Positions 17,262 through 22,625 of a stretch of 32,000 nucleotides of DNA are shown here, piece after piece. Numbering within the stretch: position 1 is the stretch's first letter; the number at the start of each line of letters is the position of its first letter. The stretch is taken from the NCBI RefSeq assembly GCF_003044035.1, contig NZ_NVQC01000013.1, positions 60,001 through 92,000 of the forward strand. The letters are read 5' to 3'. Under the pieces are notes generated by a model that did no database searches, was not told the origin of the DNA, and worked only from the letters and a program-made list of their open reading frames with translations. The position numbers were made by a program, and so were the translations under genes. The DNA comes from Candidatus Methylomirabilis limnetica. GTDB lineage: Bacteria; Methylomirabilota; Methylomirabilia; Methylomirabilales; Methylomirabilaceae.

Positions 17262-17505
17262 AACAACCATCGCGGTAGTCGGACTCGGCTATGTTGGCTT
17301 GCCCCTTGCTGTTGAATTGATCTGGGCCAGCCCCCGTGAACTGCTCAATATCATTCAAGCCGACGTCATTGGCTGCCATATCATTACCGTGACACAAGAT
17401 CTTTTGAAGAAATCGCACCTCATTGGCAAGGATCTGCATGAGTACTCACTCGACACCGTCAAGATGTTTCACGATGACGCCATGAAGGCCGGTTATACGC
17501 TGTAG
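17254..17505 (+). pseudogene. Chimeric remnant: first about 22 codons of a nucleotide-sugar dehydrogenase fused to the last about 55 codons of a transaldolase-family gene
   Basis: MTETTIAVVGLGYVGLPLAVE is a Rossmann GxGxxG N-terminus typical of UDP-sugar dehydrogenases. It is followed by PRELLNIIQADVIGCHIITVTQDLLKKSHLIGKDLHEYSLDTVKMFHDDAMKAGYTL, a transaldolase-like C-terminus. Confidence 0.55.
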
Positions 17506-17783
17506 GGAACGGATTGTCGTACCGGATAGCGTAGACCCTCCCGGCTATTGGCGGCATCCGACGTCGAGAGAGAAGAGGCCTAACAAGGAGACCCTATATG
17601 ACAACCGCCCTCATCACGGGCATCACCGGCCAAGACGGCTCGTACCTGACCGAGCTGCTGCTCGCGAAGGGCTACACAGTCCACGGGCTGATCCGGCGGG
17701 CCAGTACGTTCCATACGGAGCGGATCGAGCATGTCTACCAGGATCCACACGACCCGCAGGCCCGTCTCGTCCTGCACTATGGT
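17470..17783 (+). repeat. gmd 5' repeat unit 1 (tail of transaldolase-like gene, 92-nt spacer, gmd codons 1-62)
   Basis: Aligns with 18900-19199 and 20041-20371. The coding part differs from each of the other copies at about 10% of positions by hand count. Confidence 0.85.
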
Positions 17784-17786
17784 TGA
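17598..17786 (+). pseudogene. gmd: GDP-mannose 4,6-dehydratase, 5' fragment 1 (62 codons)
   Basis: [62 protein letters not shown], then TGA. The intact copy continues DLSDSS.... Confidence 0.9.
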
Positions 17787-17832
17787 GAGGAGACTGCCTC
17801 TCCGATTACGACGAAGACCATCTGAATTGCCG
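17784..17832 (+). repeat. 49-bp conserved junction element, copy 1
   Basis: TGAGAGGAGACTGCCTCTCCGATTACGACGAAGACCATCTGAATTGCCG matches 19200-19248 at 46 of 49 positions. It contains the hairpin GAGAGG-N6-CCTCTC. Confidence 0.85.
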
Positions 17833-17900
17833 GTAAATAGGGACAGGTAAATAGGGACAGACACTCGTAACTTCCCAATGAAGCCGTCCCTTCCCATGGG

Positions 17901-18290
17901 TTATCTATTGGGGAGAATAGATGCCTGTTTGAAATGTAACAAGCGGTCATCCGCTGTAACCAGCGTCAGATCATAGACCCGAGCTGAGGCAATAAGAAAA
18001 CGATCAGCCGGATCCTGGTAGGGAAGATCGACTGATCGGCTTTGAATGGCGACTTCATGATTCAGTACGGCCTCCTGAAAGGCAATGGTCCTATAGACCT
18101 TGCGGATCCAGGTGGCTGGATCCGGTTCCAGGATGACGCGCCCCTTTTCGGCAAGGAGGATCATTTCCCAGGTGCTGATGGGTGAGACCCATAGCTCATT
18201 GGCCGGATCCTGAAGGGCTGTGGCGACACGTTTACTCAGACGAGCGGGCTCTAAAAGAGCCCAGAGAAGGATATGGGTAGTGCGGGCGAA
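17901..18290 (-). pseudogene. PIN-domain (VapC-like) toxin lacking a start codon and the first catalytic Asp
   Basis: The frame reads ...RYHFARTTHILLWALLEPARLSKRVATALQDPANELWVSPISTWEMILLAEKGRV...QDPADRFLIASARVYDLTLVTADDRL. No ATG, GTG or TTG lies upstream of ATG 18164. The usual LLDTH reads ARTTH. Confidence 0.6.
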
Positions 18291-18490
18291 GTGATATCTC
18301 CCACAATCTTCCCCGTGGATTGAAATGCGCCCAACCAGGATGCCTGTTTTTCCGGAGGAGGAGGTGGGATTACCTGAGCCATGGGTTCACCCCGGCGTGT
18401 TACCAGGATGGGCCGTCCTGTTTTCTTTACTTTATCCAAGAGCGTGAGGCAGCTCGCTTTGAACTTAGAGATTTTCACCTTTTCAATCAT
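18251..18490 (-). CDS. Phd/YefM-family antitoxin
   Basis: MIEKVKISKFKASCLTLLDKVKKTGRPILVTRRGEPMAQVIPPP.... It lies immediately upstream of, and overlaps, the PIN frame. Confidence 0.75.
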   Translation of the reverse strand: MIEKVKISKFKASCLTLLDKVKKTGRPILVTRRGEPMAQVIPPPPPEKQASWLGAFQSTGKIVGDITSPALPISFSGLF

Positions 18491-18572
18491 TGAAATGTAA
18501 GTCCTCCTTTCTGATCCGATAGCTACGTAAATTGTACCATAGTTATGGACTGCACCCTTAAGTTTGGACGGT

Positions 18573-18895
18573 TTAGGTGAGAGTCCCTCGACAGGGGTCT
18601 TGGTTAATCTGGGCGGCCGTCCAGAACGCTTCAAATTCCTCCGGCGGTCGGTAGCCCAAGGCTGAATGCAGTCGCTTATGATTATACACCTGTTCGATAA
18701 AATACGGGAGTCTGGTCTGGACATCGTCCAGCGTCCGGTACCCCGAGAGATACACTTCTTCGATTTTTAAGGTTTTCATAAAACTTTCGGCCATGGCATT
18801 GTCATAGAACCGCTCCTTCGACGATGACCGCGACTGTCTTCCAGTTGAGCCGGAAGTGGGCGGCCATCGGTTGTCTTGACATCGGGGTCTCCTTC
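18573..18895 (-). pseudogene. IS3-family orfB, 3' fragment
   Basis: ...SSKERFYDNAMAESFMKTLKIEEVYLSGYRTLDDVQTRLPYFIEQVYNHKRLHSALGYRPPEEFE. There are frameshifts upstream and no ends or orfA. Confidence 0.75.
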
Positions 18896-18899
18896 AGGC

Positions 18900-20371: not shown

Positions 20372-21295
20372 GATCTCTCCGATTCGAGCCAACTCACAAA
20401 CCTCTTCTATGAGGTCCGGCCGGATGAGGTCTATCACCTGGGGGCGCAGAGCCATGTACGCGTGAGCTTCGACATGCCGGACTACACGGGCGACATCACC
20501 GGGTTGGGCACAGTCCGCTTACTGGAGGCGATCCGGAAGAGTGGGGTGGGGTGCCGGATCTACCAAGCCTCCAGCAGCGAGATGTTCGGCGATGCTCCGG
20601 CGCCCCAGAACGAGCAGAGCCGCTTTCAGCCGCGCAGCCCGTATGCGATCGCCAAGCTGTACGCTTACTGGATGGTGCGCAATTACCGCGAAGGGTACGG
20701 CCTCTTCGCCTGTAACGGCATCATGTTCAACCATGAGTCGCCCCGGCGGGGGGAGACCTTTGTCACGCGGAAGATTACGCGGGCTGTGGCCGCCATCGTC
20801 GCTGGACGGCAGAAGACGCTGTTTCTGGGTAACCTCGATGCTCGACGCGATTGGGGGTTTGCGCCGGAGTATGTGGAGGGGATGTGGCTGATGCTCCAGC
20901 AGGAAGCACCGTGTGACCTGGTCTTCGGGACCGGTGAGACCCATTCGGTGCTGGAGTTTGTGGAGGAGGCCTTTGGCTACGTCAACCTCGACTGGCGGGA
21001 CTACGTCACCGAGGACCCGCGCTACCGCCGCCCGACAGAGGTTCCGCTCCTGCAGGCCGATCCCTCCGAGGCCAAGCGACGCCTCGGGTGGGAACCTACC
21101 GTCGCATTCCGGGACTTGGTCAGGATCATGATGGACGCCGACCTCGAGGCCGCAGGCCTACTCGCGCCAGGGCAGGGGACGCGGTGCCTGACCGATGGAT
21201 GTAACCCGCGCGATAGTACATTGAAACTACCGGTGAGGTTGCCGTTTGATCAATCGGTGCCGCTTCTCCTCGAGGAGAACCAGTACGCCGGTTAA
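20186..21295 (+). CDS. gmd: GDP-mannose 4,6-dehydratase, full catalytic length but with a non-native C-terminal tail
   Basis: [22 protein letters not shown]...[13 protein letters not shown]...[45 protein letters not shown].... After ...RCLTDG (21198) it reads 32 codons antisense to the 3' end of the convergent toxin gene. Confidence 0.9.
20810..21198 (+). repeat. 389-bp gmd 3' direct repeat, copy 1
   Basis: Aligns without gaps to 22209-22597, about 90% identical by eye. Confidence 0.85.
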
Positions 21296-21586
21296 TTCAT
21301 CAAGATGGGTAGTGGTGAGCAGATGTTTAAGGCGGGGTTCATATCGCACGGGGGTGTTGGGCCGGATCGTGGAGATGATGATCCCACCGCATCGAGCGGG
21401 GTCAAACATACGAAAGCCTTTGTCGGTTGTGACGATGACACGCTTTTGCTGACAGGCGATACGATAGATTTCGAAATCTTGAGTTCCGAAGCGTTCAAGC
21501 TCCTTAATATCCAGAACGTCGTGGCCTAGGCCCCTGAGCAATGCAACAGTTGTGGGCGAGACGCACTCATCGATCAAGAAGCGCAA
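21227..21586 (-). CDS. DUF5615-type PIN-like putative toxin
   Basis: [58 protein letters not shown]... Confidence 0.7.
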
Positions 21587-21595
21587 GCAGAGGCC

Positions 21596-21841
21596 TTATC
21601 GTTGAAGGGCGTTCGAGCCATAACGGAGAGCTTCGTTGATATCTTCCGGTGTCAGATGAGGAAACTGATCGAGAATGTCTTTGATCGAGTAACCATCGGC
21701 CAGGTAATCAAAGATCAGGGAGACGGGGATACGTGTGCCCTTGATGATCGGCTGGCCGTGCATGATACTCTTAGCACGAACGATCCTCGCAAAGGTCCCT
21801 GTCTCACCATATTTTTTGGGAGATGTTGCGGTTTTGGGCAT
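21596..21841 (-). CDS. DUF433-type putative antitoxin
   Basis: MPKTATS...MHGQPIIKGTRIPVSLIFDYLADGYSIKDILDQFPHLTPEDINEALRYG. Confidence 0.75.
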   Translation of the reverse strand: MPKTATSPKKYGETGTFARIVRAKSIMHGQPIIKGTRIPVSLIFDYLADGYSIKDILDQFPHLTPEDINEALRYGSNALQR

Positions 21842-21888
21842 GGATAGAGTCTCCTTGATTGTTAGTGTAAGATGAAGGTGTATGAAAG

Positions 21889-22110
21889 TCAACTGTACCG
21901 CTGCATCGGTGGGTGCAGCAGAACCTCTTCTGGCACCTGGGCTCGCAGACCAGGGTACACCTCCATGAGCACCGCAATATCGGCCAGACCCTTCTGTGCT
22001 GATCCACGATCACCGCCTTCCAAAACGTGAACGCCCTCATCGGACCACTCACATTGACCCGTCACTTCCTGCCTTTCTGGAGTCCTCTGATTACGCCAGA
22101 TCCCTTTCAT
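21889..22110 (-). CDS. Hypothetical small protein (73 aa) upstream of the DUF433 gene
   Basis: ORF only: MKGIWRNQRTPERQEVTGQCEWSDEGVHVLEGGDRGSAQKGLADIAVLMEVYPGL.... No family was recognised. Confidence 0.3.
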   Translation of the reverse strand: MKGIWRNQRTPERQEVTGQCEWSDEGVHVLEGGDRGSAQKGLADIAVLMEVYPGLRAQVPEEVLLHPPMQRYS

Positions 22111-22208
22111 GTATTCGGTTCGGCATGAGGTAACTGCAACAGGGCTATAGGGAAAGAACAAGGACGCTGGAGAAGGGGAACCTTTGTCTGAGAGAGGCGA
22201 CGAGGCGC

Positions 22209-22597
22209 CAAACAAAGCTGTTCCTGGGCAACCTTGAGGCCCGACGCGATTGGGGGTTTGCGCCGGAGTACGTCGAGGGGATGTGGCTGATGCTCCAACA
22301 AGAGGTACCGTGTGACCTGGTCTTCGGGACCGGAGAGACGCATTCGGTTCAGGAATTCGTGGAGGAGGCCTTTGGCTACGTGAACCTGGACTGGCGGGAC
22401 TACGTGGCGGAGGATCCGCGCTACCGCCACCCGACCGAGGTCCCGCTTCTGCAGGCCGATCCCTCCGAGGCCAAGCGACGGCTCGGGTGGGAGCCCACAG
22501 TCACGTTCCGGGACTTGGTCAGGATCATGATGGACGCCGACCTCGAGGCCGCGGACCTACCCGCGCCAGGGCAGGGCAAGCGGTGCCTGACCGATGG
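22209..22597 (+). repeat. 389-bp gmd 3' direct repeat, copy 2
   Basis: See 20810-21198. Confidence 0.85.
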
Positions 22598-22625
22598 TCG
22601 ACTGGCGTGGCTCAGGAGACCGTGA
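22209..22625 (+). pseudogene. gmd: GDP-mannose 4,6-dehydratase, 3' fragment retaining the native C-terminus
   Basis: [66 protein letters not shown]...[34 protein letters not shown]. Confidence 0.9.

Follow-up and report, generated by a model that had tools for sequence, protein, structure and literature searches.

Fragments of gmd alternate with toxin-antitoxin pairs in a variable region of Candidatus Methylomirabilis limnetica

The movement of small chromosomal toxin-antitoxin (TA), addiction and defence cassettes without a transposase or integrase is poorly understood (PMC2654758, PMC2853133). This work concerns a stretch of 32,000 nt from the methane-oxidising bacterium Candidatus Methylomirabilis limnetica (NZ_NVQC01000013.1, assembly GCF_003044035.1, contig positions 60,001-92,000; hereafter the window), in which truncated copies of the sugar-synthesis gene gmd lie in direct orientation with TA genes in the gaps between them. 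An earlier note, made from the letters of this DNA alone, had pointed out the arrangement and knew of no described system that targets gmd in this way. Literature searches found no paper on gmd as a target or on this Methylomirabilis locus, and searches on Methylomirabilis together with TA systems, or on TA genes flanked by gene fragments or direct repeats, gave nothing on the locus either; an analogue does, however, exist (PMC2853133).

The closest described phenomenon is the insertion with long target duplication of restriction-modification units (Nobusato et al. 2000, Gene 259:99; Furuta, Abe and Kobayashi 2010, PMC2853133). These units lie between direct repeats of 30 to about 420 bp with no transposase or integrase; for their still debated mechanism, a cycle has been proposed in which a unit inserts, is amplified and leaves again via the repeats (PMC2853133). 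The gmd locus resembles them in having addiction-type genes between direct repeats of more than 30 bp, no mobility gene and a variable repeat length. It differs in its cargo, which consists of type II TA pairs and not of restriction-modification genes, and in that the events are stacked on one gene, with junction families that span lineages. The repeats differ too: those of the long target duplications are nearly identical (e.g. 417/423 and 384/412; PMC2853133), whereas the gmd repeats are 87-90% identical and carry the differences of functional alleles, not those of a fresh duplication.

Minimal mobile elements of Neisseria are small cassettes without mobility genes that strains swap by homologous recombination alone, in conserved flanking genes (PMC3787668, PMC1797815). 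The gmd cassettes share the lack of mobility genes and the homology in conserved flanks, but the Neisseria elements sit between two different intact genes and have no duplicated fragments, whereas the flank at the gmd locus is one gene, duplicated and truncated. In transformation merodiploids of Streptococcus pneumoniae, one repeat-carrying donor fragment gives rise to a duplication via alternative pairing (Johnston et al. 2013, PMC3784515). The Neisseria elements (PMC3787668) and the merodiploids (PMC3784515) would both supply plausible recombinase-free routes. The latter is a tested route to duplication, although the merodiploids are large, unstable laboratory products with identical repeats, and competence in Methylomirabilis is not established.

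Campbell-type integration is represented by complex class 1 integrons, where ISCR1 has duplicated 3'-conserved segments around it, and by IS26 translocatable-unit arrays. As at the gmd locus, the cargo lies between direct repeats of a common segment; such arrays grow by repeated events and can be released via the repeats. Their common segment, however, is part of a mobile element and a transposase makes the circles, whereas the gmd segment comes from an ordinary metabolic gene and no circle-generating enzyme was identified. Integrative islands that restore the end of their target gene, with dusA, tRNA or transfer-messenger RNA (tmRNA) genes as targets, accrete in tandem by means of an integrase and a single core site. 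They too leave a ladder of displaced gene-end copies with cargo and a preserved functional gene, but neither an integrase nor a single core site was found at the gmd locus.

Cargo and open reading frames (ORFs) were assigned by Pfam and NCBIfam profile searches, and repeats by self-BLAST and a repeat finder; positions above 32,000 are joined coordinates, made from the window and the following 21 kb of the contig (L093). At the 5' side the same unit, comprising the tail of a transaldolase-like gene, a spacer and the first 62 codons of gmd, is present three times and only the third continues into a gmd gene (gmd#1), as the earlier note had described (Table 1). Both repeat searches agreed on this, at 87-90% identity: 17582-17832 matches 18998-19248 (90.0% over 251 nt, E 4e-94 by self-BLAST), 17575-17783 matches 20163-20371 (88.0%) and 18900-19199 matches 20071-20371 (86.8%), and the upstream stretches 17471-17518 and 20045-20092 are 81% identical. 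All are direct repeats; those of the 5' side are 209-302 nt long and that of the 3' side, discussed below, 381 nt, and the 5' and 3' matches have E-values between 1e-71 and 1e-147.

The three 186-nt coding stubs differ pairwise at 18, 18 and 19 positions and are thus roughly equidistant. Codon 62 (..LHYG) is the last in stub 1 as well as in stub 2, and a common 49-bp sequence follows (J185; 46/49 identical), in which a 14-nt replacement is followed by 10 nt of native gmd (CTCTCCGATT); the 33 identical nt in this junction are only weakly surprising (P = 0.03-0.13). The left edges of units 2 and 3 are unequal, with 9 nt and about 35 nt of the transaldolase tail, respectively, and the homology of unit 2 reaches 30 nt further left (18870) when it is aligned to gmd#2, the second intact copy described below. 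The stub differences, the common 49 bp and the unequal left edges agree with the earlier description, to which the longer homology of unit 2 and the return to native gmd within J185 are corrections. The last 6 nt of the second junction copy (J185b) are predicted to form the -35 box of a promoter-like site serving the AbrB/RelE pair. Directly after the first copy (J185a) a 14-nt unit, GTAAATAGGGACAG, occurs twice in tandem (17833-17860). A J185 hairpin was considered as a recombination site and rejected, its stability being that of shuffled sequence (z = -1.3 and -0.1).

Table 1 Features of the gmd locus within the window
Feature	Position	Strand	Content or basis
Chimeric 83-aa ORF	17254..17505	+	about 22 first codons of an NDP-sugar dehydrogenase and last ~64 codons of a transaldolase
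gmd unit 1	17471..17783	+	transaldolase tail, ~90-nt spacer, gmd codons 1-62
gmd unit 1 stub ORF	17598-17786	+	Pfam GDP_Man_Dehyd positions 1-59
49-bp junction copy a (J185a)	17784..17832		starts with in-frame TGA; 10 nt are native gmd nt 190-199
Decayed PIN (VapC-type) toxin	17901..18164	-	Pfam PIN model 67-116 of 120, C-terminal part in frame
Phd/YefM-type antitoxin	18251..18490	-	Pfam PhdYeFM_antitox; TIGR01552 E = 7e-7
DDE (rve) transposase C-terminal fragment	18573..18794	-	Pfam rve_3 positions 19-67 of 67, rve_2
gmd unit 2	18870..19199	+	30 nt gmd#2-type upstream, 9 nt transaldolase end, spacer, gmd codons 1-62
gmd unit 2 stub ORF	19014-19202	+	repeat comparison
49-bp junction copy b (J185b)	19200..19248		repeat comparison
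AbrB/MazE-type antitoxin, 140 aa (153 aa from GTG 19303)	19342..19764	+	Pfam MazE_antitoxin; TIGR01439 AbrB
RelE/ParE-like toxin, 85 aa	19761..20018	+	weak TIGR02385, E = 0.1; identical to PTL36686.1
gmd unit 3 upstream part	20045..20185	+	~35 nt transaldolase tail and spacer
gmd#1, 369 aa, WP_239993097.1	20186..21295	+	Pfam GDP_Man_Dehyd E = 1.5e-135
DUF5615 (PIN-like) putative toxin	21227..21586	-	Pfam DUF5615 E = 1e-16, PIN_10
DUF433 putative antitoxin	21596..21892	-	Pfam DUF433 E = 6e-23
gmd#2-type upstream segment	21997..22187		22099-22187 is gmd#2 nt -399 to -311
gmd 3' fragment (nt 620-1044, native stop kept)	22204..22628	+	dN/dS 0.08-0.09
PIN_3 toxin	22785..23198	-	Pfam PIN_3 E = 7e-21
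RHH (CopG/VapB-type) antitoxin	23211..23447	-	Pfam RHH_1, VapB_antitoxin
Y1-transposase element, first copy	23891..25087	+	IS200/RAYT-type, ~1.0-1.2 kb, ~20-bp terminal inverted repeats

The inserts measure 0.8-1.1 kb and hold TA genes, an assignment of the earlier note on which Pfam and NCBIfam agree. Judged by these matches, the cargo appears to fit the type II TA layout, with Phd beside PIN, AbrB beside a RelE-like protein (a weak call), DUF433 beside DUF5615 and, after the 3' gmd fragment as previously noted, RHH beside PIN_3. The RelE-like ORF overlaps its antitoxin gene by 4 nt, and its cluster mates are named RelE/YafQ or plasmid stabilization protein in their sources; the Phd/YefM antitoxin is called as a 79-aa gene in L002. 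The mobility-related content of gap 1 is solely a 73-aa rve fragment, and gap 2 and the 3' insert contain TA genes alone, with no transposase, integrase or other mobility gene. Further TA-type modules at 29453-30023, 30537-30845 and 31392-31926 comprise a second DUF5615/DUF433 pair, an MNT-type nucleotidyltransferase and a PemK toxin with a small upstream gene.

It had been proposed that TA addiction keeps the cassettes in place between repeats that would otherwise recombine. Repeats that are 87-90% identical, with identical runs of at most 47 nt, are poor RecA substrates, so that addiction is not needed to explain the persistence of the cassettes.

At the 3' side, 20818-21198 and 22217-22597 form a direct repeat with 90.0% identity over 381 nt (E 2e-147), close to the earlier estimate. 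gmd#1 is native as far as nt 1013 (window 21198), where the homology ends; its native length would be 346 aa, and the last 8 native codons have been swapped for 31 foreign codons that run antisense to the DUF5615 gene. The loss of these codons had been seen correctly. For the stretch taken in the earlier note as an insert bracketed by two copies of a gmd segment, a better description is that a TA pair lies in front of a second gmd unit, from which nt -310 to +619 were deleted at a later time; the segment at 21997..22187 and the gmd 3' fragment are what is left of this internally deleted unit. The upstream segment recurs at contig 36310-36500 and in another Methylomirabilis lineage (L096), and the -310/+619 deletion junction recurs at 36.4-37.4 kb and likewise in L096.

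The features first described are real, but they are the left end alone of an array of about 25 kb (17.3-43 kb) that contains a second intact gmd. Eight gmd pieces in a single orientation make up the array: on its left side nt -15 to 185, nt -144 to 185 and gmd#1 (nt 1 to 1013), then 3'-type pieces of nt 620 to 1044, 619 to 1045, 990 to 1041 and 879 to 1044 (at 22.2 kb and about 36.9, 38.8 and 40.0 kb), and at its right end gmd#2. The last of these is intact (346 aa, PTL36712.1), 87.6% identical to gmd#1, and lies at window-equivalent 41662-42702 (L093:10001-11041), about 9.7 kb past the window end and about 20 kb downstream. Interspersed with the gmd pieces are about ten TA-type modules, about six copies of the Y1-transposase element, ISL3 remnants and glycosyltransferase genes. 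The three DUF433/DUF5615 pairs of the array are 23-38% identical to one another, which rules them out as copies of one module; since they stand beside homologous flanks, cargo turns over next to conserved arms. A further similarity (89%) links 21209-21301, which starts just beyond the end of homology in gmd#1 and lies inside the 3' end of the DUF5615 gene, with the intergenic sequence at joined 43012-43103. The latter, located some 300 nt past gmd#2, may be the remnant of a similar cassette.

Metagenomic data, and copies that differ at strain- or species-level divergence, raise the question of whether strain variants of a single gmd locus were co-assembled in a string. That the ladder is such an artefact is very unlikely, almost to the point of dismissal. 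It is found with 100% identity to the window in ENA ERZ4201063 NODE_42 (668x coverage) and again, as the same ladder at 100% identity, in ERZ4201065 NODE_928 (22x), both SPAdes-style contig names; a k141 contig (MEGAHIT-style name) from another project covers stub 2, the junction, the following TA pair (TA2) and gmd#1; and in an NCBI M. limnetica assembly a 153,077-bp contig encodes three ladder proteins, WP_239993097.1 (the 369-aa gmd chimera), PTL36686.1 (the RelE-like protein) and WP_432264754.1 (the gmd 3' fragment). The longest identical runs between the flanking repeats, 38-47 nt, are too short to mislead assembly at the junctions, and each cargo-to-stub junction is a unique sequence and must therefore exist in some genome. 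Short k=31 contigs end exactly at a shared 30-nt stretch, as expected if both copies are in the sample.

One public contig, L006 (Logan, ERR3856785), might be cited for an artefact. It matches the gmd#1 locus without exception as far as gmd nt 121 and, from nt 153 onwards, does the same with gmd#2; it has zero private differences, and the switch falls inside exactly 31 shared nt. A 94%-identical relative as its source was ruled out by site-by-site comparison, which showed a perfect gmd#1/gmd#2 hybrid. L006 is thus either a 21-kb deletion variant that arose by recombination between gmd#1 and gmd#2 or a k=31 graph chimera; the Logan assemblies, from which it comes, are made with a k-mer size of 31, so that the contig may have arisen in the assembly graph and has no evidence value.

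The ratio of nonsynonymous to synonymous substitution rates (dN/dS) is 0.08-0.15 in every pair of gmd copies, the differences being mostly synonymous ones at third codon positions, and neutral divergence was rejected across the pairs with P = 3e-4 to 2e-11. Neutral decay in place is therefore rejected, in keeping with the earlier proposal that the divergence of about 10% reflects homology arms from other alleles. The upstream edges of the units in one genome differ as well (190, 9 or 35 nt of transaldolase tail, or a U-type upstream segment), which implies that the units come from different contexts.

These results bear on an important rival, an old tandem or segmental duplication of gmd, in which an ancestor would have gained several paralogues through unequal crossing-over and most of these would have been eroded in place by deletions and insertion sequences (IS). 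The TA genes would have come independently into a permissive junk zone, with no role for gmd homology in their movement. Such a duplication is possible, if rather doubtful. In its favour, the array has an intact gmd at either end, its pieces share one orientation, which tandem duplication would produce, and IS and Y1-transposase elements adjoin some fragments. If stubs 1 and 2, with their common junction, were related by simple descent, both should be pseudogenes throughout; neutral descent is rejected for this pair (P = 3e-4), and only 1/8 of the two-by-two informative sites groups them, so that they are not sister sequences. Nor do the gmd fragments of the window have the pseudogene decay expected at about 10% divergence, with 0-1 private changes at 25 invariant positions. 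Decay is detectable where it happened, for the gmd fragment at 37 kb has a stop codon and the 3' fragment of L096 two stops and a frameshift. gmd#1 is, moreover, nearer to the L096 gene than to gmd#2 of its own genome, and the turnover of DUF433/DUF5615 pairs beside homologous flanks also speaks against the duplication.

The closest gmd proteins are from Methylomirabilis, and ladders of a similar kind are present in three other lineages of this genus, each with its own breakpoints, junction sequences and TA cargo. L096, with a gmd that is 95% identical, contains the AbrB/RelE pair, two stubs that stop at nt 126, the decayed 3' fragment, Uma2 and two MNT/HEPN-type pairs. In L095 (GCA_028716865.1) the stubs stop at nt 126 and nt 150, and a MazE/PemK pair separates gmd from a 3' fragment; in L181 the stub breaks off at nt 105, and an intact PIN/Phd pair comes next. 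The cargo at gmd in these other lineages includes MNT/HEPN, Uma2, PIN/Phd, ParE and MazE/PemK; small ORFs in the nt-126 cassette and in L181 gave no Pfam match. In L178 (GCA_019912425.1) a single gmd has no stubs within about 4 kb, and its neighbours differ from those at the M. limnetica locus, so that it stands in another genomic context than the array. Examination of relatives, as suggested in the earlier note, therefore yielded other cargo at gmd, but a search with the transaldolase tail found no uninterrupted transaldolase-gmd junction. A gmd scan of genome and metagenome contig collections gave only distant homologues (at most 79% identity) among the matches listed.

Taken over these loci, the 5' stubs end at nt 105, 126, 150, about 162 or 185 and the 3' pieces start at nt 619-990, with at least three unrelated junction sequences. 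Where a breakpoint recurs its flank recurs with it: the 49 bp after nt 185, and another junction of about 120 nt after nt 126, the latter in three stubs from two genomes. The junctions are thus families related by descent and not repeated hits on one site. The view of gmd as a landing pad for related donors survives in part: the nt-185 junction family is widespread, but the many breakpoints and unrelated junction sequences mean that there is no single landing site, and part of the array is old.

This age is apparent from modules that are colinear between lineages at 80-93% identity, namely TA2 with the tal tail and the 5' part of gmd, a module of a 3' fragment with Uma2, and the deletion junction. 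Such common modules and odd deletion junctions favour an old duplication, as does the fact that M. limnetica and L096 each have tal-type as well as U-type upstream sequences. Alleles of the stub point the other way. In a protein collection, at least 12 other contigs encode stubs of exactly 62 residues ending in ..LHYG, with at least 11 alleles among them, and a 57-residue type marks a further breakpoint; the residues of the 62-aa alleles are almost all among those of functional gmd genes, and the variants at position 18 and in the C-terminal motif occur in every one of their four combinations. At least one allele, P0280, is a clear mosaic of functional-type variants, joining a gmd#2-type 5' part to the junction-proximal part of stub 1, with its V46, which is absent from 110/110 functional sequences examined. 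The nt-185 and nt-126 junction sequences had no match in a viral collection.

All 17 gmd fragments in the four loci are co-oriented with the intact gene, with a chance of 8e-6 (at most 0.004 if there were eight independent events). This is predicted by a homology-dependent process, with which the different upstream contexts of units in one genome, the functional-type variation of the stubs, the mosaic allele and the turnover of unrelated cargo beside conserved arms also agree.

Site-specific islands that target gmd, bring a replacement gene end, accrete in tandem and later lose their integrase could give similar ladders, and they would fit the complete gmd that is kept downstream of the 5' insertions and the breakpoint and 49 bp common to two stubs. 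They are nevertheless distinctly improbable. No integrase and no tyrosine or serine recombinase gene was found among the called genes of the 52-kb region or the scanned ORFs, and neither a tRNA or tmRNA gene nor an Rfam element was detected in the window. The breakpoints, at least five at the 5' side and many at the 3' side, have unrelated flanks with no common core; the inserts are just 0.8-1.1 kb, the hairpin at the junction is not significant, the 3' insertion leaves the native C-terminus unrestored and the junctions are absent from the viral collection. Integron features were also sought, and no integrase, no Rfam hit and, within 15-25 kb, no inverted repeats at the cassette edges were found.

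The scatter of the breakpoints would fit one-sided homology (homology-facilitated illegitimate recombination), in which linear DNA from a related strain, anchored in or beyond gmd, has its other end joined inside the resident gene; the resident gmd would be cut to a stub, and the upstream cargo and gmd of the donor installed. A homologous anchor preserves orientation and allows units to differ in upstream context, and the nt-185 junction, with its 14-nt filler and 10 nt of re-joined gmd, is an untidy, illegitimate-looking join. As an account of the whole locus this is unlikely, since it explains the origin of a junction but not its propagation: the nt-185 junction occurs twice here and in many alleles from other sources, and two genomes have between them three examples of the nt-126 junction. 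The same breakpoint recurring with the same flank implies that most copies spread after a single founding join.

The reading that we favour, with a probability of about one half, is recombinase-free accretion guided by gmd homology, by single crossover or a related route, followed by erosion. Segments consisting of a gmd piece and a small cargo, mostly a type II TA pair, would be added serially beside the resident gmd, with the gmd sequence itself as the homology arm. Joining could take place by Campbell-type single crossover with a circularised segment, as the earlier note proposed, or by a linear donor fragment that bridges two copies during DNA uptake; the direct, co-oriented repeats agree with the former, and the P0280 mosaic and the four combinations among stub alleles of other samples speak for repeats that are host-donor chimeras, but it is one of several homology routes. 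By either route the cargo would come to lie between two direct, non-identical gmd copies, one intact and one a stub, and no dedicated recombinase would be required. Each founding junction was probably created by illegitimate joining. Recombination between the repeats could then release the structure, which might enter any genome with a gmd, and crossovers inside the stub would refresh it with the sequence of working alleles. Deletions, insertions of IS and Y1-transposase elements and replacement of cargo would account for the later erosion, and the TA genes may have some part in retention.

Several observations weigh against accretion of this kind. The likeness of stubs 1 and 2 is not raised near their junction, unlike what a simple crossover within the stub predicts: 8 differences fall in the last 36 nt before it, and the stubs are no closer there than elsewhere. 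The four 5' copies are star-like with no clear spatial blocks, and the evidence for mosaics within the contig is weak. With modules 80-93% identical between lineages, some of the array is old, perhaps through vertical inheritance. No circular intermediate, same-context pair of empty and filled sites or reciprocal chimera was seen directly, and L006, the sole candidate for a product of recombination between repeats, may be an assembly artefact in view of its 31-nt switch.

The left border of the variable zone is the cut in a polysaccharide operon at 17254-17320. Here the start of a dehydrogenase gene of the UDP-glucose/GDP-mannose type (nucleoside diphosphate (NDP)-sugar dehydrogenase, with a GLGYVGLP motif) overlaps the stop of a polysaccharide deacetylase gene and is fused in frame to the transaldolase tail. 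The resulting chimeric ORF matches UDPG_MGDP_dh_N at aa 5-22 and TAL_FSA at aa 20-79 (Pfam), and TIGR03026 at aa 5-23 (E = 2e-4) and TIGR02134 at aa 19-82 (E = 5.8e-25; NCBIfam). The transaldolase-like tail recognised in the earlier note is thus genuine, though itself part of a fused fragment. The best 120 protein matches of this tail are all "transaldolases" of 60-103 aa. A small-ORF family, or the remnant of a target, was considered for these and rejected, the context being one of frameshift splits or contig-end cuts; at least some are genes split by frameshifts in seemingly long-read assemblies or cut at contig ends (L185, L186). Where context is available, this transaldolase subfamily adjoins polysaccharide gene clusters.

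The Y1 element (IS200/RAYT-type) is present in about six copies that are 84-95% identical and have terminal inverted repeats GGGGTCAGGCATGCCTTATT. In addition to the first copy, the window contains 30875-31306 (with 30245-30411), and further copies lie at joined 32223-33264, 34417-35553, 38264-38819 and 39761-39987; one is a miniature of about 200 nt with the ends alone. The copies alternate with TA pairs, and two adjoin gmd fragments. A palindrome-rich unit of about 160 nt, with an inverted repeat at 24315-24348/24360-24393, is found at 24284-24450, where it splits the transposase gene of the first Y1 copy, and at 30245-30411 (93%), as well as at joined 34802-34926 and 36755-36914. It occurs separately from the Y1 element and looks like a mobile unit of the repetitive extragenic palindrome (REP) or miniature inverted-repeat transposable element (MITE) kind. 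An ISL3 transposase is split into two ORFs at 25295-26549.

Upstream of the array, G+C ranges from 43% to 70% over the first 17 kb of the window, and the polysaccharide cluster there is therefore probably a mosaic. An rve-type IS transposase (440-aa ORF) occupies 9116-10438, and 3628-4010 has weak (66%) inverted similarity to 9442-9060. A tandem repeat of about 195 nt (65 aa; 6-103, 201-298 and 304-345, about 90% identical) encodes a coiled-coil-like sequence (…EALEAVTTDRDAWEARYQQ…) in the N-terminal part of a 536-aa glycosyltransferase ORF starting at 62. An insertion of a style like that at gmd was also found here: 1506-1702 and 3124-3320 form an 86%-identical direct repeat of the 3' end of a family-2 glycosyltransferase gene with the next start codon, and bracket a 419-aa ORF of lower G+C and no Pfam match, in the order B / insert / B. 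The repeat differences fall 8, 5 and 11 on the three codon positions, a weaker third-position bias. As the cargo is not a TA pair, insertions of this style are not confined to TA genes.

The variable zone lies at the edge of a surface-polysaccharide cluster, a region that is probably under phage-driven diversification. The current annotation of Ca. M. limnetica lists the 369-aa chimeric gmd and the gmd fragments as ordinary genes. The locus is a multi-layered natural record of cassette movement, in which one host gene has been reused, junction families occur across lineages and the stubs have a gene-like substitution pattern; together these features make a model of "hitch-hiking" on homology arms directly testable. 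More tentatively, gmd segments may be portable homology arms for recombinase-free selfish cassettes, mostly TA pairs, that would move between Methylomirabilis lineages by leaving and entering through recombination inside the gene fragment. If true, this would explain the paradox of a widespread 62-codon stub that is non-functional and cut at the same base, yet exists as many alleles and evolves like a working gene, and the question of how chromosomal TA modules spread without mobility genes would have a concrete answer of general reach.

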